Below, piece by piece: positions 2,430 to 37,233 of a DNA stretch of 64,000 bases (positions within the stretch are counted from its first letter, which is position 1; every line of letters starts with the position of its first letter). A program made the translations under genes and the position numbers. The stretch covers positions 64,001-128,000 of the forward strand of contig JBHLLF010000004.1 in assembly GCA_048885865.1 (NCBI GenBank), given 5' to 3'. Origin of the DNA: Candidatus Hermodarchaeota archaeon. Lineage in GTDB: Archaea > Asgardarchaeota > Thorarchaeia > Thorarchaeales > Thorarchaeaceae. Below the pieces are notes generated by a model. It was not told the DNA's origin, searched no databases, and saw nothing but the letters and a program-made list of their open reading frames with translations.

Positions 2430-3097
2430 TCTCTATCACCTCTCCCACGCCTTTCATCAGGTCCTGGCTTTGAGTCCCTGAACTCGCCAGAGTCAGGCAT
2501 ACGCCTACGCTCTCGAGGAGGACGCCCTTCCTCTTCATAGTCGTCCTCTGTAGCCTCAGCAGTTATCCTTTGAGCCGCAGCAGAGGCTGCAATGCGTGCT
2601 GGATGTGATTCATCGTTCAAGGCAGATTTTGCAGTATATCTGATGCGGTCTTCTTCTGCAACTGTGATGAGCCTCGAAGGAGTGGTAACCTTTGCCTGAT
2701 CAAGGGCAACATGTCCATGAGTAACGAGTTGTCTAGCATGATGTGCTGAGCTAGCCATGCCTTTTCTGAAGACAATTGTCTGCAATCGTCGCTCAAGTAG
2801 ATTCTCAAGTGTAAGGTCAAGTACACTGTCTAGAGTCTGCTCACCTGTGAGTGCTCCAAGGCGGACAAGCTTCCCAATGAGATCAGATTCCAGAGTGGCT
2901 CGCTCGTCAGCTGTCAGAGCCAGGAGGTTTCGGGCCTGCCTCCTGTAGCGGGACAGCTCTGTCTTATGTCTCCATAGTTCTCTCTTGTTTCTAAGCCCAT
3001 AAGTACCAATAAACTGTAATTCACTTTCGAACCTGTCGCTATCGAACGGGCGCTTAGGGCTTACGTACTTCTTCTTCTGGCGCCTCGGATCTCCCAT
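2426..3097 (-). CDS. rps4: 30S ribosomal protein uS4 with charged C-terminal tail
   Basis: [32 protein letters not shown]. Confidence 0.98.
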
Positions 3098-3117
3098 TAT
3101 ATTCTGACCTCAATGAA

Positions 3118-3567
3118 CTATGCTTTCTTTCGTGATACTCCTACAGCTGCTCCACCACGACCAGTTGTCCGGGTATGCTGACCTCTCACCTTCAGACCAA
3201 GTGAATGACGAACTCCTCTCCATGACCGGATGCGTTTGAGGCGGTCGATGTCGCTTCTGTGGGCAAACTCCAAGTCCGGGCCTGTTAAATGCAGGTTCCT
3301 TCCGCTTGTGCGATCGCGTGACCTGTTGACATACCAATGTGGCAATCCAATTCCTACAGGATCCTTGACAATCTTCTCAATCTCGCTGATTTGGTCATCA
3401 GTTATGTAGCCCAGTCTGCTGTATGGATCAAGTTTGAGCTGGGTGAGAATCGCCTTTGATAGTCTAAGGCCCACTCCACTGATCCGGGTGAGACCTTGGA
3501 GTAGATTCTCTTGACCGTCGATGTCACGACCGGCCACACGTACGATATGTCGATATTCCTCTGCCAT
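3118..3567 (-). CDS. rps13: 30S ribosomal protein uS13
   Basis: HIVRVAGRDIDG, SWRGVRHSLGLKVRGQHTRTTGR. Confidence 0.98.
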   Translation of the reverse strand: MAEEYRHIVRVAGRDIDGQENLLQGLTRISGVGLRLSKAILTQLKLDPYSRLGYITDDQISEIEKIVKDPVGIGLPHWYVNRSRDRTSGRNLHLTGPDLEFAHRSDIDRLKRIRSWRGVRHSLGLKVRGQHTRTTGRGGAAVGVSRKKA

Positions 3568-3756
3568 GGTCTATAACCTCATCTGGACTGGTCTGAGGCT
3601 ATCTCGCCTTTTGGAGTTGCCTTATAATAGTTGCCATCAAGCCACGCTTTCTGATGTGCTTTAGACGTGATAGAGCATATCCTGTTTTTGGAGGAGTTCA
3701 AATTGGACTGTATATACTAGCAACTAGCAGGTAACGCGAGGCAGCAGGAGGACTGA

Positions 3757-4164
3757 TTGATGACTGACGCACGTCCAAAGCAAACTAGCATAGAAGCTGA
3801 AAGAAGAGCCACACCCTCAGCAATGGCAGATCTTCCGATTATACTTAAGGGGCTGCTTTTAGGATCTGTTAACAGTGCGCAACGAAGGAAATCAGTCCTA
3901 TTGTCATCAAACAGCCTCGCCAACAGGTTTATCCTGGAAAAATGGGGAATTCGTCCTTCTCAGAGAAAGCGGAACAAGAATCTATTCTCAATCTCCAGAA
4001 AACACGCACGCAGGCTATTTCGTCGACTATTGAACCGAGGTCGATTCGAATGGACCACATCTGAAGGCGAAGTGGCATTCGGAGTGTACAGGTATGATGA
4101 GATACGGGGAAATCTGATTTTGGCATTTGTAAAATTGGACCCAGAGTCACCTTGGAATATATAA
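3757..4164 (+). CDS. Basic hypothetical protein (possible nucleic-acid binder)
   Basis: GGAGG SD upstream; Arg/Lys-rich helices followed by a beta hairpin. Confidence 0.65.
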   Translation: MMTDARPKQTSIEAERRATPSAMADLPIILKGLLLGSVNSAQRRKSVLLSSNSLANRFILEKWGIRPSQRKRNKNLFSISRKHARRLFRRLLNRGRFEWTTSEGEVAFGVYRYDEIRGNLILAFVKLDPESPWNI

Positions 4165-4165
4165 T

Positions 4166-4597
4166 TTGGAACTCAAGGGAGAAAGTTCGAAAGTCAAAGG
4201 CTATGCTTCCCAGAAGATTAGCCTCTTTAGCAACCACTTCCCTATACAAACCACCATGCTATTGTCTGGCTTGATTGGAGTGCTTTTCGGCAGATATCTC
4301 TCAGACAAGAAGTATTTTCTCATCATAGCATTGGCAATTGGATTTGTGTTCGGAGTCTTCGGAGAAATGGGATTGGTATATCCATTCTATATTAAATTGA
4401 ATCCAGAGTTTACACATTACGAGCTCTTCTTCTTGGATGCCAACTTCAAGCTCTTCGAGATCCCGACATTGACTAGCCCTCTATTTGCGATCCCTCCGAT
4501 TGTATATGCCATATTTGTGACTGCAAGTATGGGGGGAGTCCTACTTGGATATGCAATTGGGAATAAACTAAAGCCTCCTATGAGAGTGAGTGATTGA
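4166..4597 (+). CDS. Hypothetical membrane protein (start may be downstream)
   Basis: Three hydrophobic segments. Confidence 0.6.
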   Translation: MELKGESSKVKGYASQKISLFSNHFPIQTTMLLSGLIGVLFGRYLSDKKYFLIIALAIGFVFGVFGEMGLVYPFYIKLNPEFTHYELFFLDANFKLFEIPTLTSPLFAIPPIVYAIFVTASMGGVLLGYAIGNKLKPPMRVSD

Positions 4598-8902: not shown

Positions 8903-10258
8903 CTATGCTAGATCGACTGGAATTGTTCCCTTATCGGCCTCTCGACGGGTACGACGGAATGAACGTACATCAAAGAAGTCGCCCTGATTCCATTTCCATG
9001 CTCTTTCACGGCGATCGAACATCGCGTCCGCCTTGAACACCTCCTCTGTGCCAGCTGATATTATGTGCGCTGAATAATCATCTACACGAGACATCCAGTT
9101 TGCCAGGGCTTCAATAAGCCCTTCGGAAGTTCCAGGAGGCAATGAAGCCATCTGGAGAACTCTTTTCTCCGAGGTTTCTAGATTTACGATTCTTGTAAGA
9201 TATGTTACCGGGAGAAGCCGCCACGCAGTTAGAATATTGCCAGCACATTCTGGGTCTGACAGAACCAGGACCCTATCCTTTAGGTGGGGCACTCTCACCC
9301 GAGTCCTGGGAACAACAACCCTTTCCTCCAGTAGAGAAGCCCTCTTCCGAAAGGCAGTGCTGTCGGACAAACCAGTGGCATCGACTATCTCATTTGCTGT
9401 TGCATCAAAATTGACGACTAGTTCGTCGATTATCTTCAGGTCCGCAGGTGTGAAGCGGATTCGCTCCTCAATGGGAGCTGAGTCGCTGACGATAATCTCA
9501 CTATCATTCTTTCTTATCTGGGTAGACCAATGGAACTTGTCAAATTCCCAACCGACTCGGGGTTTACAGTACGTTCCATCAAATCTCGACTGACCAGCTG
9601 AGAGTCTCCAAGCAGAAGCTTTTGATGATGTGCTTCTCAATGATCGTATCATGTCCAGAAGGTCACCTATCCTCTCACTGGGGAGAGTGGCTACCAACAG
9701 GACGAGTGGCTCAGACCCATCAACAAAGAGAGCCTTGGTGATATATGGGGAAGACAGGACTAATTCCGGAGCTTCAAGAAGCACCAACACGCGTTCAAGT
9801 CCTAACTTGGAAGCATTGAGAGCCCCTTCCATTCGAAGAACCTCGGCTCTTCTAAGACGCTGGACAGCACGTCTGGCTTGTGAGTAGCTCAATCCAGCAC
9901 GGCTGGCAAGTTCTCTGACTCCAATTCCTGGCTCAAAGAGACTCTCTCCAAGAACTGATTGTTCCGTGGAACTGAGAATTGACACATTTCGATGCCAGAT
10001 TTCCTCGATGAGTGTCCACACATCTTTCTGCGTGATGGACTCGACACCGCCAAGCGCCTCCACTTCATTGAGCCGAGCCTTTAGAGCCATACAGAGACTC
10101 CCACGATGACTCTCAGCGATTTGGATTAATCGGTCGATCTCTGGTCCGTGTTGAAACAAATCAAGCTCTTTCTTCTCCTCCAATCCACATACTATTTTGA
10201 TGAGGGTTCTGGCATCGTGAGAGAAATTCATTGTCTTGACTTCCGCTGAAATCAGCAC
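8903..10258 (-). CDS. Tandem winged-HTH (Lrp/AsnC-like) transcriptional regulator
   Basis: Two HTHs (VRELASRAGLSYSQARRAVQRL; ANEIVDATGLSDSTAFRK), each followed by an alpha/beta domain. Confidence 0.7.
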   Translation of the reverse strand: MLISAEVKTMNFSHDARTLIKIVCGLEEKKELDLFQHGPEIDRLIQIAESHRGSLCMALKARLNEVEALGGVESITQKDVWTLIEEIWHRNVSILSSTEQSVLGESLFEPGIGVRELASRAGLSYSQARRAVQRLRRAEVLRMEGALNASKLGLERVLVLLEAPELVLSSPYITKALFVDGSEPLVLLVATLPSERIGDLLDMIRSLRSTSSKASAWRLSAGQSRFDGTYCKPRVGWEFDKFHWSTQIRKNDSEIIVSDSAPIEERIRFTPADLKIIDELVVNFDATANEIVDATGLSDSTAFRKRASLLEERVVVPRTRVRVPHLKDRVLVLSDPECAGNILTAWRLLPVTYLTRIVNLETSEKRVLQMASLPPGTSEGLIEALANWMSRVDDYSAHIISAGTEEVFKADAMFDRRERAWKWNQGDFFDVRSFRRTRREADKGTIPVDLA

Positions 10259-10335
10259 GATAGATGACCTCCAAAGCAGTTTGTAATATACCCAGAACTG
10301 CGTTCTGGTGGAACAATAAAAGGTCCACAGAGAGG

Positions 10336-11103
10336 TTAGACTGGCTGAGAATCACTCCATAGGGATTCAAAGTAGGCTGATGCCATCGCTGCGAATACGG
10401 GTGCTGAAGAATAGATTCCCAAAAACTCCCCTTCAGTGTCACTTGCCGCTAGCATAATCAGTGTCTGCCTGTTGTCGATGACTAATCCAGCACCAAACAC
10501 TCTATCACGCGTGCGGACCTCAAAGCCACTAGGGATGATTGACTTGAGAGACGACTCAACTCCAGATGTGAGGACTCGCACACGACTTGCTTTCACATAA
10601 AGTACCTTGTCAATTACAGGGGAAATATCCTCAGCCTCTAAGGCGAGGGTTGGAACTGACAACAGGACTGAGTCCCGGGATGAATCGAGCATTTCTAATG
10701 CCTTGGCTAGAATTGACGCCCTTCCATGCAATAGCCACACATCTCTGGTGGTGGCAGTCGTTTCCTGTTCAAAGAGGGGTTGGAGTTCATCTATTACCTG
10801 CTTGCTTGCCAGGTCTATTCTATGTTCTATATCTAGTCGCACAAGTTGAACAATCTCAGTCGGGGACTTTGCTGTGTAGAGCGTTGGCCTTCCTTTACTG
10901 ACAGTTATGAAGCCCTTCTCTTCGAGTCGCCCAAGCACATCATATATTCTTGAATAGGGCACCTGAGACCTGGAACTGATATCAGATGCAGCCATCTGCG
11001 GACCACCCGAAATCATAGACAGATAGGCATTGGTTTCATACTCTGTGAGACCCAGCTCCTTCAGTGCCTTCAGAGTTGCGTCACTGACCGACATTATCAC
11101 CAC
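10336..11103 (-). CDS. TrmB family transcriptional regulator
   Basis: LGLTEYETNAY, VPYSRIYDVLGRLEEKG, PLD-like C-terminal domain. Confidence 0.92.
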   Translation of the reverse strand: MVIMSVSDATLKALKELGLTEYETNAYLSMISGGPQMAASDISSRSQVPYSRIYDVLGRLEEKGFITVSKGRPTLYTAKSPTEIVQLVRLDIEHRIDLASKQVIDELQPLFEQETTATTRDVWLLHGRASILAKALEMLDSSRDSVLLSVPTLALEAEDISPVIDKVLYVKASRVRVLTSGVESSLKSIIPSGFEVRTRDRVFGAGLVIDNRQTLIMLAASDTEGEFLGIYSSAPVFAAMASAYFESLWSDSQPV

Positions 11104-30321: not shown

Positions 30322-30789
30322 TCATGGAGGAGTCCAGTCTAAAGGAATGATTCCAGCGAGAGTTTGTATCAGTTCCTTTGTCCTCTTATCGTCAAATCTG
30401 CAGCTCTCCCAGACCTTTTGCTCAAACACCAGATCATCTTTGTCCCTAATTGAAAATGTGAGCACCGCAGCATTCGGAAGAGCCCTCTCTGTGCAATTCT
30501 GCAAGTCCCATATCTTCTTCTTTGATAACTCTCCAATGAAGGCAGACAGGTCATCATTGGAAAAAGCTGTCTCTCTCTTCTTAGCTGCCTTAGTTTCATT
30601 CTTGATATCGACTGGTGTTCCCTTCGGTATTTTCCAATGTGTAATCTTATCAGAGGTCACAGTGATTCTGAGTCGCGAATAATATGCAGTGTGCCCGGAT
30701 TGGTATTCGAATGAGAAGTTCGCTAATTCGGCTTTTCCTTTTAGCAGGTCCTTTAGGTAGTTCCTCAATTCCTTCTTGGTATATGTCAC
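30322..30789 (-). CDS. Hypothetical protein downstream of actin
   Basis: GAGGT SD, GTG start, globular composition. Confidence 0.75.
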   Translation of the reverse strand: MTYTKKELRNYLKDLLKGKAELANFSFEYQSGHTAYYSRLRITVTSDKITHWKIPKGTPVDIKNETKAAKKRETAFSNDDLSAFIGELSKKKIWDLQNCTERALPNAAVLTFSIRDKDDLVFEQKVWESCRFDDKRTKELIQTLAGIIPLDWTPP

Positions 30790-30874
30790 ATACCTCTACC
30801 TCAACCTCATTGGGTCTTTGATTCAAGTCAAAGAAGTCAGGTTCCATAATAAGCTCATTTGCGACAAAATGCAG

Positions 30875-30920
30875 TTCAAAGAAATAGAAGTTTGAAGGAG
30901 GGCTTTGCGGCCCTACCTTC
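30875..30920 (-). terminator. Hairpin plus pyrimidine-rich tract after the actin stop
   Basis: GAAGG-U-AGGGC-CGCAAA-GCCCU-CCUUC followed by AAACUUCUAUUUCUUU. Confidence 0.55.
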
Positions 30921-30933
30921 AGAGACTGTTGGT

Positions 30934-32073
30934 CTAGATGCACCTATGAATGACTTCGGGTCCTGCTTCCTCGAACTCCTTTCTGGAAACCCACATCTTC
31001 TGGAAGGTCTTCAGCGAGGCAAGGATGCTTCCACCAATCCAGACAGAGTACTGCCTCTCGGGCGGAGCAATAATTCGGACCTCGATGTTCTCTGGGACTA
31101 GCTCAGTGATCTCCTTGTGGAGCCGCTCCTTGAGTCCTGGGAACATGGTAGAACCACCGGACAACACAACGTTGGCATATAGGTCACGTCGCAGGTCGAC
31201 GTCACATGCCTTTATTGACTCAACAATGTGGTCGTCTAGTGGTTGGGTGTCAAGACCGATCGCGCTTGGATTGAAGAACAGCTCGGGTGCCTGGAACCTC
31301 TCTGCTCCAACAGTAATCACCTCACCGTCTGGTAGCATGTAAGGCTTGTCGACACCGGCCTTGTCGGCTACGGTTCGCTCTCTCTCAGGATCAAGGGCTA
31401 CGTAACATAGCTTCTCCTTGACATCCCTGACAATTTCCTTCTCTGCACCGCTGACAAAGGAGTAACCCCTCTGTCTGAGCAGTCTGCGCAGATACTCGGT
31501 GATGTCACGGCCTGCGAGGTCGATTCTTTTGATGGCGTGGGTGATAGCAAAGCCCTCGTAAATCGGGACAATGTGTGTCACACCATCTCCAGAGTCAATA
31601 ACTAGCCCCGTCGTTCTTCCGGACGCGTATAGCGAAAGCACTGCCTGTGTGGCAACGTACACTGCTGGAACACCAAAATTGTCAAACATTACTGAGGCCA
31701 TTCTCTCACGGTTCTCACGTGGGTTGAATGGTGCTTCAGTCAGTAGGACTGGGTTCTCACTAGGGTCTACTTTGAGGTCATTATAGAACGTGTAGCTCCA
31801 TATCTTCTCAATAGCGTCCCAGTCATCAATCACACCGTGTGTGATAGGATAGACCAGTCGCAGAACACCACGCAGGTTGATGGCTTCCTCACCGATGTAG
31901 TAGTCTCTGGTATAGTGATCAACATCGGTCATGATTGATTCGTATCTTGGATATCCAATCAGTGTGGGCCAAACACTTCGTGGCTGATCTTCGCCGGCGT
32001 ATCCGTTCTTGCTAAGGCCAGTGCCGTTGTCAATGACAATGGGCTTCGCGCCAAGGAACTCGTCTTCAGCCAT
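30934..32073 (-). CDS. Actin (Asgard Lokiactin-type, eukaryote-like)
   Basis: [86 protein letters not shown]. Confidence 0.98.
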
Positions 32074-32245
32074 TTTTTTCGGTCCTCTTTTTCTGGTTAA
32101 TGAGTAGATCTCAGAACCTAGATTCTAACTCAGAGTTCACGGAACTCTTCGCTGATGTACTGTTGCCTTTCGACCATATTTAAGACTATTCTGTCTTAGT
32201 CTCTTTAATTCAAAGAATTATCTTATGTATATTCGATTGCTACGA

Positions 32246-32259
32246 GACCTACATAGGTC
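32246..32259. promoter_or_regulatory. Palindrome GACCTA-CA-TAGGTC, candidate operator between divergent actin and wHTH-CARF genes
   Basis: Perfect 6-2-6 inverted repeat in the middle of an AT-rich intergenic region. Confidence 0.35.
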
Positions 32260-32418
32260 ATGTATTTCTGGCGCTTTTACTAGCTTTGAAATGCTTCTCT
32301 AAAGGCGGTATATACATCATTAGGCATATATTTGTTTTAATCAATAGTGCAGGAAATAACATTACATAGACGGAATATATATATAATATATGTCTTTGAA
32401 GTAAAGTGGCGCGAAACG

Positions 32419-33216
32419 ATGTTCTGGGAAACTGCAGACACGGTCATCAGACGGGAGATTCAGATTGACGCCAGAAGGATAATACTTGATCTGTTAGAAG
32501 GTGGTCCGAAGACAGGGATAGAACTGCGGGAAGCCATCAAGCGATTCAAACAGACCCAAGAGATGGACAAGGCTAGAGAGGAGAAGCGAAAGCTCACCAA
32601 GAAGCAGATACAAGCCATCAATGTAACCGACCCGCACCTGTATCACAATACGAAACACCTGGAGAATCTCCAAATAATCACTAGCAGGAAGAGCTCAAGA
32701 ATACGGCTCTTTGGACTGGTGCCATGGGCAATCCAACCTGTGAGAAGAGTTCTAGGGATAACTCGCCCAGTGGCTCTCATTACCTCGATGTCACGCCCCG
32801 AAGATCAGAGACCATTCATCACTTGGCTGAATGACCAAAAAGATTTCGACGTGAGAGCACTCCATGTCATAGTCGAAGATCGAACCTTTGCAAGAGGCTC
32901 GTCAAGGGATCTGGCAAGATACCTGCCTGAAAAGGCCGAGCCTAGGTGGGAGATACAGTGGCACGACTTGCCCGTCGACTCTGCAGGCAACTATGACACA
33001 AATATCCCCGGCGATGTTATGCTCACCCAGCGAGAGATTGAGAACATAATAACTGACAACATCACTCAGTATGATCTTGTTATTGATCTCTCGACAGGAC
33101 CACCCCTGATTGTGCTTGCACTCTCACTCTTGGCCATGCATTACTCGCTAAGTGCCATATTCGTGAATCACAAGGATGGTAGCAATATCATAACTCGAGT
33201 GTTGCCAAGGGGCTGA
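32419..33216 (+). CDS. N-terminal winged-HTH + C-terminal CARF-like domain protein
   Basis: ARRIILDLLEGGPKTGIEL...LYHNTKHLENLQII wHTH; Rossmann-like domain with LVIDLSTGPPLIVLALSLLA (CARF D-x-S/T-G-G strand-helix position). Confidence 0.72.
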   Translation: MFWETADTVIRREIQIDARRIILDLLEGGPKTGIELREAIKRFKQTQEMDKAREEKRKLTKKQIQAINVTDPHLYHNTKHLENLQIITSRKSSRIRLFGLVPWAIQPVRRVLGITRPVALITSMSRPEDQRPFITWLNDQKDFDVRALHVIVEDRTFARGSSRDLARYLPEKAEPRWEIQWHDLPVDSAGNYDTNIPGDVMLTQREIENIITDNITQYDLVIDLSTGPPLIVLALSLLAMHYSLSAIFVNHKDGSNIITRVLPRG

Positions 33217-33222
33217 GCCAAG

Positions 33223-33906
33223 TTGGAGCAGGGTAGAGAGCTTTCTTGGGAACCAATAGGTCTCGAGAGCACACTGAATGAGATGGTCAACATTGTCAGA
33301 GAAATAGAGGAAACTACTCCATCTCACAGCAAGCGGACGCTCCGTAAGACAAGGAAATGGATTCAACAGCTCAGCGAGGTTTTAGATTCTCTGGACAAGA
33401 TTCGGACTGAGCTGAAGCCTCGACTTGAGGATGCGCTGTGTCTTTCGATCAGGGATATGGAATTGCTCCAAGTAGCCATGTTTCAGCCAAGTACAAAGAA
33501 TCTCTTCAGCGAGCTGCAAATTCAGCTATCGATGGACGAGAGAAGTCCACTTGACAAAGAGGACTACGATATTCTTGTGTCACTAAGCGAGATTGCGCAG
33601 TCATTGGCGTTGGTGGGCGATGCGGCAATCTCGATGGCAGTATTGCATTACATCTGGCAACCAAAGGCCACAGATGTTGGAACGTTGACTCAACGTCGAG
33701 CTGATATTGTGAGTAATGAGCATCTGGCAAAGGTCTGTGACTCTTGGGGGCTTTATGAAGAACGCATCCATTTCGACCCTGCGAGTTCCAGCAAGTCAGA
33801 GATGAACCATGACAAAGGCACCCTTGTTGAAGCAATCTACGGGATAATTTACATTGAGAATGGGTTCAGCAAAGTCAGAGAACTGATTCCACTACTAGTC
33901 GGGTGA
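33223..33906 (+). CDS. RNase III catalytic-domain protein without dsRBD (Mini-III-like active site)
   Basis: LQVAMFQPS, SLALVGDAAI, GTLTQRRADIVSNEHLA, GTLVEAIYGIIY. Confidence 0.85.
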   Translation: MEQGRELSWEPIGLESTLNEMVNIVREIEETTPSHSKRTLRKTRKWIQQLSEVLDSLDKIRTELKPRLEDALCLSIRDMELLQVAMFQPSTKNLFSELQIQLSMDERSPLDKEDYDILVSLSEIAQSLALVGDAAISMAVLHYIWQPKATDVGTLTQRRADIVSNEHLAKVCDSWGLYEERIHFDPASSSKSEMNHDKGTLVEAIYGIIYIENGFSKVRELIPLLVG

Positions 33907-33916
33907 TGACATGCAC

Positions 33917-35404
33917 TTATGCTTCGGTCATGTCATATTCGGCTCTTAGATCCTTTGCTCCTTCTGTTCCAGGAAACATCTGGAGAAACCGTTTCCGAAT
34001 TGCCTTTGCATCCTCGGGATCCGAATATACGCGAACTGATGGGATAGTTTCCTTTTGCTTGTTGAGGATTTGCATGAGGGGTTGGCCCTCCTCAATTGAA
34101 TCAAGCGTTACTGTATCAAGACTTGTGGTTTCTCCACCAACTAGGAGAGGAATTTTACCAAGAATATCCTCGCCTAGCTTTGGGTTCACTACATCAATGA
34201 TGACTTTACCAATATCTCCTGCGACATCGGCCTCCATGTCAATCAGTTTATCAATATCTGTCAGGGTCGCTAGCAATGCGTCTTTTGAAGCCTGTTCAAA
34301 GGATGATAGTGACCGTGACAGTACTACCTTGAACATTCTCCGGTGTCTAATTCTTCTTGCATAATCTCTCACGAACTCAATCTCTGAATTCTTAAACCAC
34401 AGATATAGATCAGCGTCTGTCATTCGGGTAAATAGTCCAAAACATTCGTTCCTTGATAGTCCTTCTTCTCGTACTCGGAAGTATGTTGCCTTCGATGTTA
34501 TGGCTTCAGCAAGCTTAACAGCGTGATGGAGGTAAAGATCACTAAACATCCAGTTCCTACTCATGATTAAGGATTCCAAAGAATGCAGGGCCTTAAGCAT
34601 GAATGCCCTCACATATTTACCATCGGGCATTCTGACCACGCGATTTGTCAACATGACTCGCTCTGCAGGAAAGATACCTAGTTGGACTCCGCTGAAGTGG
34701 GCATCTCGAATCAGATAGTCTGTCTTGTCTATATCCAGGGGATGATCAAGAAAATCAGACAGAAGCATCCAAACTGGATCCTTTGCTTTTCTACGAAAAA
34801 CATCAACAACCGTACTTGGCTCAATGCCATTCTCCTTCAAGATATCAGATAGGCCACTGTGCTTAATGAGATACTCACCTAAGTCCAAGTGGTCGATACC
34901 AGCCCAACTCTGGAGAGCATACTCGATAGTATGCGATGTTGGAGGATGACCAACATCATGAAGAAGAGCCGCTGCTCTGAATACCTTCTGCTGGTAGTCA
35001 TCAAGGAGATTGGATAGCGGATAGAAGCAAGGCTTATCCAGGTCGTCACAGTAGTTGACAACGCGTATGCACTTCTGCGCCAAGAAGTTGGTTCCAACAC
35101 AGTGGAGAAACCTAGTGTGAGTTGCTCCGGGATAAACCAGATGTGCTGGGCCTAGCTGTTTGATAAAGCGAAGTCGCAGCATCTCAATGCTGGAGAGGAT
35201 GTCTAGTTCCCAGGGGTCAAAAATGATTGCACCATGTACTGGATCTTGGATGGCTTTCTGACGTGTGTGCTTTTCCTCAACTGACCATAAACGCCTGCGT
35301 CGTTCTATCTTATTATGTATCTCATCCCAAGCATCACCTCTTGCAGACTTTGCCTCGGCAATAGCTCGCTCTCGAAAACCTGTCAACCGAATCAATTCAG
35401 CCAT
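33917..35404 (-). CDS. HD-domain phosphohydrolase (SAMHD1/dNTPase-like family)
   Basis: DPVHG, RLRFIKQLG, YPGATHTRFLH, LLHDVGH..SH, DIDKTDY..RD. Confidence 0.9.
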   Translation of the reverse strand: MAELIRLTGFRERAIAEAKSARGDAWDEIHNKIERRRRLWSVEEKHTRQKAIQDPVHGAIIFDPWELDILSSIEMLRLRFIKQLGPAHLVYPGATHTRFLHCVGTNFLAQKCIRVVNYCDDLDKPCFYPLSNLLDDYQQKVFRAAALLHDVGHPPTSHTIEYALQSWAGIDHLDLGEYLIKHSGLSDILKENGIEPSTVVDVFRRKAKDPVWMLLSDFLDHPLDIDKTDYLIRDAHFSGVQLGIFPAERVMLTNRVVRMPDGKYVRAFMLKALHSLESLIMSRNWMFSDLYLHHAVKLAEAITSKATYFRVREEGLSRNECFGLFTRMTDADLYLWFKNSEIEFVRDYARRIRHRRMFKVVLSRSLSSFEQASKDALLATLTDIDKLIDMEADVAGDIGKVIIDVVNPKLGEDILGKIPLLVGGETTSLDTVTLDSIEEGQPLMQILNKQKETIPSVRVYSDPEDAKAIRKRFLQMFPGTEGAKDLRAEYDMTEA

Positions 35405-36219: not shown

Positions 36220-37233
36220 ATGACCAAACTTAGCCTACTATCCGAACACTCCCTAAGAGAGGGAGTCACATCACTCGAAGTTGTGGACCTAACCGGTAGT
36301 GGAAAAGCTAACGTTGTAGTATCAACCATGAACGGAGACCTCAGAGTTTTTGAGCTGACCAAAGGAAAGACGCCAAAGCTAAGGGAGATAGCTAACACAA
36401 GTGACCTTCCGCCAGTTGCTGCTTTAGACGTTGGAGATGTCCTAGGCAATGGTGTTCCTGACTTTGTTGTAGCGGGACTCGACAATCATCTCCGACTACT
36501 TGTGTTTATGGACAACAAGTTACAGGTGAAGAGTTCGACTCCTGTGGGAGCCATTCCGACGTCCTTGGTGGTTGCCAATGTACTTAGTGACAAGAGCGCA
36601 GAAGTCATTGTATCCACAACTGACCAAGCCCTCAGGTGTTACGGATGGTTTGACGTAGTTCTGGATAAGTTGGCACACAAGGTCGTGGACAATCCAGTCC
36701 TTTCGATGCGACGATTGTCAATAGAGAACGTCCCCTACAGTAGGTTCGTTTTCGGAGATGAAAATGGCAACCTCTTCGTATATCAGTACGCTGACGATAG
36801 GCTTCACGAAGTATGGAGAATGAAGGTAGGGAAGGAAGTCTATCATATTGCCACTGGTAATATCGCTGGCGGAAGATATGACGAAATCGTAAGTGTTTCA
36901 GACAAACGTACAATAACGCTTCTAAGAGTCGAACAACAGGCGCTTGAAAAGGTGCTATCAATCAAGGCTCCCGATCCAGTAACTGCAGTGAGAATGGGTA
37001 GAATTCTCCAAGACACACCAGCAGGACAGATTCTACTCAGTCTTCAGGACTCCACGATATTACTGCTAGGCTTCAATGGCATTGAATTGATAGAGCTAGC
37101 CTCTCTCAGGACTGCTTCGAAATCTGCAGAGTCCATGGTAGCTTTTGGAGACCTTACTGGCGATTCAAGAAATGAGATCGTTCAAGCGATAGGAAACAAG
37201 ATATTTATCGTTACGATTGATGAGACGGCATGA
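36220..37233 (+). CDS. Cytoplasmic seven-bladed FG-GAP/VCBS-like beta-propeller
   Basis: Repeats of type D-x-x-G-x-G-x-x-E/D-I/V-V; no signal peptide. Confidence 0.8.
   Translation: MTKLSLLSEHSLREGVTSLEVVDLTGSGKANVVVSTMNGDLRVFELTKGKTPKLREIANTSDLPPVAALDVGDVLGNGVPDFVVAGLDNHLRLLVFMDNKLQVKSSTPVGAIPTSLVVANVLSDKSAEVIVSTTDQALRCYGWFDVVLDKLAHKVVDNPVLSMRRLSIENVPYSRFVFGDENGNLFVYQYADDRLHEVWRMKVGKEVYHIATGNIAGGRYDEIVSVSDKRTITLLRVEQQALEKVLSIKAPDPVTAVRMGRILQDTPAGQILLSLQDSTILLLGFNGIELIELASLRTASKSAESMVAFGDLTGDSRNEIVQAIGNKIFIVTIDETA

Follow-up and report, generated by a model that had tools for sequence, protein, structure and literature searches.

How is actin controlled in the Asgard archaea, whose regulation of the cytoskeleton matters for the question of how eukaryotic cells arose? 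The question is raised by a locus within a stretch of 64,000 nucleotides (nt), here called the window, from Candidatus Hermodarchaeota archaeon (assembly GCA_048885865.1, 87% complete; contig JBHLLF010000004.1, positions 64,001 to 128,000 of the forward strand), which GTDB places in Archaea; Asgardarchaeota; Thorarchaeia; Thorarchaeales; Thorarchaeaceae. There, the eukaryote-like actin gene stands head to head with the gene of a regulator composed of a winged helix-turn-helix (wHTH) followed by a CARF domain, and an RNase III-domain gene comes directly after the regulator. The original prediction, drawn from the sequence alone, saw in this arrangement a new system in which a CRISPR-independent, ligand-sensing factor controls a nuclease for double-stranded RNA (dsRNA) and possibly actin, linking nucleotide signalling with the cytoskeleton. 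The features on which it was built (actin, the 345-nt spacer, the gene of 265 amino acids (aa), the 6-nt gap, the palindrome and the DLSTGPP loop) are all present in the sequence, and the reading itself survives in part: the fold, the independence from CRISPR and the adjacency to actin stand, whereas the general RNase III system and the palindrome do not, and the protein is no new family. Because the RNase III neighbour is confined to the Thor family while the actin pairing spans many families, the comparative data narrow the presumed CARF and RNase III system to what would be a Thor-specific operon and point to a result of wider reach: over much of the Asgard phylum, actin has a CARF_m5 regulator as its neighbour.

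From comparative genomics and predicted structures we infer, with moderate confidence, that the regulator is a homodimeric wHTH-CARF one-component factor that binds the spacer and controls actin transcription in a ligand-dependent manner. A dimer joining an ArsR/PadR-like winged helix to a CARF_m5 sensor would bind within the head-to-head spacer that it shares with the single conserved actin gene, and a small molecule held in the putative pocket at the CARF dimer axis would set actin transcription and probably also that of the regulator's own gene. The ligand here would not be a cyclic oligoadenylate (cOA) made by Cas10. Only in the Thor family would the gene be co-transcribed with a derived RNase III-domain protein devoid of a double-stranded RNA-binding domain (dsRBD), with a possible role in rRNA or mRNA processing, maybe together with the regulator. 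A CARF sensor outside CRISPR defence, in a vertically inherited and housekeeping-like setting, would widen the known scope of the domain, and the candidate is concrete and cloneable, consisting of a small protein, its proposed DNA target of 345 nt and a single pocket for ligand screens. A full-text literature search, whose coverage did not extend to the 2020 CARF classification, returned no paper about the Thor RNase III and none that ties Asgard actin to CARF or to some other dedicated regulator.

Actin as neighbour of the regulator across Asgard families

Is the pair peculiar to this genome? When 400 genomes of the phylum were searched with a profile, full-length members of the regulator family turned up in 14 Asgard families, certain large families giving weak or partial matches only (f1 denotes the Thor family, g1 the genus of the source genome, other f-numbers further Asgard families and L-numbers the fetched loci or contigs). 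Forty loci were fetched and actin was placed in them by tblastn. The regulator directly adjoins actin in 11 of the 14 families, lying head to head with it in f1-f6, f14, f16, f28 and f29, and on the same strand directly upstream of it in f17 and in contig L008. The adjacency is thus no oddity of one assembly and, since it recurs in many lineages, this gene order lies far beyond chance. Thor contigs whose regulators are 68%, 51% and 40% identical keep the whole order of actin (-), regulator (+), RNase III (+) and HD (-), with more genes beyond; distant homologues from other lineages, at 24-33% identity, adjoin actin without an RNase III gene. The actin in question is the sole one found in the assembly (one tblastn match genome-wide at E<1e-5), matches PF00022 over its full length (443 bits against a cut-off of 27, covering aa 10-377) and is 66-100% identical to the regulator-adjoining actins of other Asgard families.

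A census in which all open reading frames (ORFs) within 5 kb were clustered makes actin the most widely kept neighbour, present in 12 of the 14 families; the next cluster, which is CDP-alcohol phosphatidyltransferase-like and lies on the regulator's other side, reaches 8 of the 14. Moreover, the actin-regulator pair persists through a change of orientation and where the genes beyond actin have been replaced completely. By synteny, actin emerges as the old and widespread partner; its regulation, which had at first been called only possible, is what we propose on top of that. Beside the actin genes of Loki-like, Heimdall-like and f30 loci there is no member of the regulator family, and an HTH protein that adjoins one f30 actin was set aside as an HTH-GNAT acetyltransferase. 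In the metagenome contig L006, the actin beside the regulator lies in pieces in different frames (3294-4421), and it is intact in the near-identical contig L005; the broken gene reflects either faulty assembly or a variant with a frameshift.

Fold, pocket and independence from CRISPR signalling

What kind of protein is the regulator? We place its start at ATG 32419 in preference to the upstream GTG 32347 because homologues begin at the same MFWxTAD. Comparison with Pfam and NCBIfam gave no match, a profile search of PDB sequences returned noise only, and word-indexed and exhaustive HMMER searches recovered a small family from Thorarchaeota-type genomes whose public names are hypothetical, ArsR-family or wHTH. 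The structure predicted by AlphaFold2 (AF2) from an alignment of 17 sequences, with a predicted local distance difference test (pLDDT) score of 84, divides into a wHTH (aa 1-115) and a CARF domain (aa 116-265). With VIA-align, the former superimposes on the ArsR/PadR regulators RosR (6qfd), SqrR (6o8m) and HlyU (4k2e) at Z ~11 (root-mean-square deviation (rmsd) 2.4-2.5 Å, 88 residues), and the N-termini of relatives give weak PadR/HTH_20 matches. Those regulators sense through the wHTH dimer, whereas here there is a separate CARF domain, and the wHTH is interrupted by a disordered insert (aa 56-70). The latter domain has the Rossmann-like CARF topology, running from b1-a1 to the b5-b6 hairpin (strands 118-123, 145-153, 178-184 and 219-223, hairpin 245-252/255-261), and in a Foldseek search of the PDB the first ~45 places all go to CARF proteins (Cam1, Csm6, Cdn1, Card1, ring nucleases, Can2 and Csa3). 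Superpositions of aa 116-265 reach Z 14.6 with VC1899, 14.2 with Cdn1, 13.7 with Can2 and 12.6 with Csa3, and overall, Card1 included, span Z 12.1-14.6, rmsd 2.5-3.0 Å and 121-138 residues. Both halves of the protein are therefore what they had been taken for, and their order is indeed the reverse of that in Csa3. With the Sulfolobales Csa3 structures (2wte, 6w11, 6wxq), dimers of CARF plus winged helix, the CARF domain aligns at Z 12.1-12.6 (rmsd 2.8-3.0 Å, 128-130 residues), a likeness that supplies ligand-controlled transcription as a working model. The two differ, however, in that CARF precedes the wHTH there and follows it here, that identity is 13%, that the K/R of the CARF signature is absent here, and that Csa3 sits in a cas locus whereas here the regulator is surrounded by actin, RNase III and HD-protein genes, with no cas genes close by and no Cas10 or array found in the genome.

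The protein does not found a new family. The PADLOC profile CARF_m5 (PDLC01987) matches the regulator at E 1e-20 (aa 49-252, profile positions 18-189 of 195) and no other protein of the source genome, and it matches 19 of the 19 family members tested, the best at 8e-60; because of these matches we rejected a new family and count the regulator as a member of an already catalogued minor CARF clade. Going by its name, CARF_m5 is presumably a minor clade of the 2020 CARF classification of Makarova et al. The architecture is the same, since the profile spans the HTH wing and the CARF domain. The best full-length profile matches inspected are Loki-like proteins of ~214 aa beside CARF_m1-PIN; the present branch is longer and differs further in being linked to actin, in occurring mostly in Cas10-less genomes and, in Thor, in the loss of the basic signature residue.

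Does the CARF domain keep a ligand site? The CARF superfamily is defined by a six-strand Rossmann-like core in which strands 5 and 6 form a hairpin, and its signature consists of a polar S/T at the end of strand 1 and of [DN]x[ST]xxx[RK] just past strand 4 (PMC4012209). The regulator model has the six strands and the 5/6 hairpin, and in its LITSMS segment T122/S123 close strand 118-123, with TS(M/L)(S/A) kept across Thor. Past strand 4, its sequence is D223-L-S-T-G-P-P229; proline stands where K/R is expected, and nearly all Thor members likewise lack the basic residue, so the departure from the usual loop noticed at the outset is real. Six of eight distant family members carry the signature (for example DVTGGGK and DVTDGTR), and DLSEGPR and DLSDGGR are found among their motifs as well. 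The loops after strands 1 and 4 are the best-conserved stretches of the Thor CARF domain, for which reason we read the site as probably changed rather than dead; as the basic pocket residue is replaced (DLSxGPP for DxTGGxK/R), the ligand has probably changed with it.

As had been anticipated along with the fold, the regulator is predicted to form a symmetric homodimer, with a score of 0.82 against 0.00 for the best control and a partner pLDDT of at least 90. Among solved proteins, 20 of 30 one-chain pairs attained the mark for a dimer, as did 1 of 23 single chains; these counts are only rough because an author-built alignment was the input. Across three runs, at least 98% of the contacts are shared. 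In the predicted dimer the interface lies in the CARF domain and is built from the loops that follow strands 1 and 4, from the helix behind the latter strand and from the hairpin; P229 contacts P229 on the axis. Since CARF dimers have already been solved, this outcome may merely reflect likeness to them and is no proof.

Is the locus part of CRISPR signalling? The source genome matched neither the Cas10 profiles TIGR02577 and TIGR02578 nor SMODS PF18144, which at 87% completeness does not amount to proof of absence, and a k-mer scan of the whole assembly found no CRISPR-like array. With no match to a cOA synthase, be it Cas10 or CD-NTase, the locus does not qualify as a type III ancillary cOA module. 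Across the same GTDB family Cas10 is present in 9 of 86 genomes (0 of 17 in the genus) and the regulator in 78 of 85, and the independence from CRISPR that had been ascribed to the locus is upheld by both the genome and its relatives. A 60-nt repeat on contig C30 was considered as a CRISPR array and rejected as a coding tandem repeat; at least nine near-identical copies lie at 10081-10620 of that contig and probably encode a 20-aa-repeat protein. Shorter CARF_m5 paralogues of Loki-like genomes are not near actin by tblastn and the one inspected adjoins CARF_m1-PIN genes, suggesting that a regulator of defence type was recruited to give the actin-linked branch. Judged from these sequences, the regulator family seems to have branched off from CRISPR-ancillary CARF regulators and to have been co-opted for a housekeeping role. 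In the Loki-like contig L068, CARF_m1-PIN is matched in two adjacent ORFs at 2730-4347 (-), by its CARF part (188 aa) in one and by its PIN part (355 aa) in the other, and the pair looks like a split or frameshifted effector adjoining the CARF_m5 paralogue.

The shared spacer and the case against actin control

Where would the regulator bind? The spacer, with 34.5% GC against 46.8% across the window, carries the elements listed in Table 1. On the actin side, the TATA octamer recurs in 22 of the 25 Thor spacers printed, 70-104 nt (mostly 89-104) from the actin ATG, with AATATAAG in one of the others and none in two; by the archaeal TATA consensus it is the putative actin promoter, and GAGGACCG is the putative ribosome-binding site. 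On the other side, AATATATATATAATAT may serve as the regulator's own promoter, and in Thor spacers a ATATATAT block is conserved close to where the regulator begins. A scan for bacterial promoters and terminators is uninformative for an archaeon, and an Rfam scan of 30500-34500 gave no match.

The palindrome GACCTA-CA-TAGGTC, to which attention had been drawn initially, occurs once in the window. Among 50 orthologous spacers, it is exact in the source genome and L032 only, and ACCTA..TAGGT variants add L029; its left arm is GATATA or AATATA in relatives whose regulators are 93-97% identical. As a shuffled 345-nt spacer holds by chance ~1.4 inverted repeats of 6+6 nt (0-10 nt spacer), the palindrome is at chance level and, as it is not kept even within the genus or among genomes with 93-99% identical regulators, we rejected it as a conserved operator. 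The spacer as a whole contains nine such repeats, and only 0.4% of shuffles have as many.

GAGTTC-N2-3-GAACTC stands in the same place in 11 g1 loci, including a subgroup with a 68%-identical regulator, and is absent in other Thor genera; located in the probable actin leader, it is a candidate operator or 5′ untranslated region hairpin. In most Thor genera the block (T)ACAT-N5-AT(G/A)TA recurs at a distance of 30-62 nt past the TATA box; it is semi-conserved, and TACAT-N5-ATGTA is at chance level within the window. The repeat that overlaps the TATA box varies on both arms between genera, so that a hairpin rather than a protein site is possible; inspection by eye of spacers L001, L010 and L014 showed related TATA-overlapping repeats in other genera, such as AGACTTA-N6-TAAGTCT in L001 and GCCTT-N8-AAGGC in L014. 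An activator would be in keeping with a site upstream of the TATA box, and a repressor with the repeats on or after it. The non-Thor spacers of f6, f14, f16 and f28 contain inverted CATCTNTAT pairs, which Thor spacers lack, and their enrichment (5.9 vs 1.1 per kb) is partly due to AT-richness. Long palindromes of CATCTNTAT half-sites, for example CATCTCTATCA-N10-TGATAGAGATG in f14, are seen in the non-Thor spacers L048-L050, L007, L064-L065, L045 and L005 and are candidate operators of the non-Thor regulators. A search of the spacers for a palindrome common to all lineages returned only TATA-like repeats and lineage-limited motifs.

Table 1. Genes, domains and spacer elements of the locus, with positions in the window.
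Feature	Position	Strand	Description
Actin gene	30934-32073	-	379 aa; Pfam PF00022, E 1e-132
Actin-regulator intergenic spacer	32074-32418		345 nt
Shine-Dalgarno-like GAGGACCG	32080-32087	-	Upstream of actin ATG; CGGTCCTC nearly invariant in 15 Thor spacers
Inverted repeat GAGTTC-ACG-GAACTC	32133-32147		~59 nt upstream of actin ATG, downstream of actin TATA box
Putative actin TATA box	32177-32184	-	TATTTAAG on the + strand, CTTAAATA on the actin strand
Inverted repeat TAAGAC-N6-GTCTTA	32181-32198		Overlaps actin TATA box
Palindrome GACCTA-CA-TAGGTC	32246-32259		In AT-rich block upstream of actin TATA box; overlaps TACAT-N5-ATGTA (32250-32264)
TATA-like AATATATATATAATAT	32374-32389	+	30-45 nt upstream of regulator ATG
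Regulator gene	32419-33216	+	265 aa; ATG start, stop codon included
N-terminal wHTH	32419-32763	+	aa 1-115, ArsR/PadR-like, disordered insert aa 56-70; AF2 model
C-terminal CARF domain	32764-33216	+	aa 116-265; AF2, Foldseek, VIA-align, CARF_m5 profile
RNase III-domain gene	33223-33906	+	227 aa; PF00636, 5e-14
HD-domain protein gene	33917-35404	-	495 aa; PF01966 and PF19276 (HD and HD_assoc_2)

Could the regulator stand beside actin merely because the gene order was inherited? Several findings weigh against control of actin by its neighbour. A second conserved block, made of CDP-alcohol phosphatidyltransferase and NTP transferase genes, flanks the far side of the regulator and is kept across classes, so that part of the actin adjacency may be inherited gene order and not function. 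Three families carry the regulator without an adjacent actin: in f15 and f18 the two genes are apart, and in f19 actin is 3.3 kb off in one locus, and in the other no actin comes within range. An operator shared by every lineage has not emerged, the Thor block being only semi-conserved. Loki- and Heimdall-like genomes express actin without such a neighbour, and the regulator is thus not required for actin expression as such. In addition, the Thor branch, without the basic CARF signature residue, may have lost ligand binding rather than changed it. If the adjacency had no regulatory meaning, the regulator would act on itself and on the Thor RNase III gene, or on an unlinked regulon. We consider this rather unlikely, given that actin is the single best-kept neighbour and that the pair survives both the change of orientation in f17 and L008 and the turnover on actin's other side; furthermore, the far-side block is convergent, which leaves actin's promoter region as the only one that the regulator shares. 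Ligand-dependent control of actin by a wHTH-CARF dimer is the account that we retain. A more sweeping version of it seems unlikely to us, namely that Asgards outside the Loki and Heimdall groups govern actin by a CARF second-messenger receptor co-opted from CRISPR signalling, with a nucleotide signal not made by Cas10 and, in Thorarchaeia, the degenerate RNase III of the same operon as a post-transcriptional arm. If it held, no pathway from signal to cytoskeleton would have been described in archaea before, and CARF would have a use outside defence.

The RNase III-domain protein and other Thor neighbours

What place does the RNase III-domain protein have in this picture? Its ORF opens with TTG, 6 nt past the regulator's TGA, and in L001 the two genes overlap by 4 nt; such spacing in Thor indicates probable co-transcription. 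The pair is kept in 30 of 30 Thor loci with enough flank, and an RNase III gene stands next to the regulator only in f1. PF00636 is widespread in the phylum, in which some lineages have the regulator without any RNase III and others RNase III without the regulator; with such independent distributions the two are not an obligate pair, and a general system of CARF and RNase III finds no support.

The AF2 model of the protein (pLDDT 92) comprises a complete RNase III catalytic domain at aa ~58-227 (Z 14.7, rmsd 2.2 Å and 136 residues over aa 61-227 against C. jejuni 3n3w), preceded by a helical hairpin of ~57 aa and with an insert of ~30 residues before the signature. There is no dsRBD, for the catalytic domain reaches the C-terminus at aa 227 where classical Asgard forms extend ~90 aa more and end with a KK..A...AA motif. 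The metal-binding acids of E. coli RNase III are E41, D45, D114 and E117. Alignment with Drosha and classical Asgard RNase III shows, in E. coli numbering, replacement of E38 by Q126, of E41 by A129 and of D114 by T200, and retention of D45 as D133, of E65 as E166 and of E117 as E203; in 30 Thor sequences, A129, D133, T200 and E203 do not vary. Half of the four metal-binding acids are therefore replaced, and the set that characterises class 1 RNase III is incomplete. Compared with the bacterial class 1 enzymes (3n3w and A. aeolicus 1yyw), the fold is complete and the equivalents of D45, E65 and E117 are kept; what sets the Thor form apart is the missing dsRBD, the hairpin, the insert and the changes at E38, E41 and D114. 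Of the dsRNA nuclease first proposed, the RNase III fold is upheld, but with half of the metal-binding acids and the dsRBD gone the nuclease call is unproven. It is a curiosity of its own that this form is the sole RNase III of the Thor genomes (and the only PF00636 protein of the source genome). Four RNase IIIs inspected in Loki-like, Heimdall-like and f2 genomes, 23-31% identical to it, are ordinary, with ERLEFLGD and a dsRBD. Absence of a dsRBD is common to the Thor protein and Mini-III; we know of no Mini-III with the N-terminal hairpin and insert, and among the matches listed for the model there is no Mini-III entry, which does not speak against kinship. In a comparison with PDB sequences, human Drosha RIIIDa scored 5e-7 and bacterial RNase III 6e-4, a small difference.

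Might the two Thor proteins instead act jointly after transcription, for instance on the repeat able to form a hairpin in the 5′ leader of actin? The loss of the basic signature residue across the Thor branch would suit such a role, the P229-P229 contact on the predicted dimer axis could close the pocket, GAGTTC-N3-GAACTC lies in the probable actin leader, and an RNase without dsRBD may need a partner for substrate binding. However, the conservation of the pocket loops argues for a working site, and the leader repeat is kept within one genus only, so that we regard joint action as improbable. Just as improbable is a stand-alone nucleotide-signalling defence module, in which the CARF protein would sense a cyclic oligonucleotide and turn on the RNase III-domain nuclease as effector or regulated gene with actin as a bystander: the CARF fold with its CARF_m5 match, the tight coupling of the two genes, their retention in all 30 Thor loci with enough flank and the CARF-PIN neighbourhoods of Loki-like paralogues speak for it, but Cas10, SMODS and CRISPR arrays were not found in the genome and Cas10 is rare in the family, the pair is single-copy, fixed in place and near-universal as housekeeping genes are and mobile defence islands are not, the RNase partner is missing from the other 13 regulator families, and two of its four metal-binding acids are gone.

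Beyond the RNase III gene, and convergent on it across a 10-nt gap, lies the HD-domain gene, in the same position in the Thor loci L001, L003 and L004. The HD protein is a conserved Thor neighbour and, on its position, only a candidate member of the regulator unit; its likeness to dGTP triphosphohydrolase is faint (23 bits against a cut-off of 152). Further along, a gene for 337 aa at 36220-37233 (+) matches BBSome beta-propeller families (Beta-prop_BBS7 2e-11, BBS2_Mid 2e-9 and FG-GAP_3). It may encode a eukaryote-signature-like protein, and it holds its place in the Thor gene block of L001, L003 and L004.

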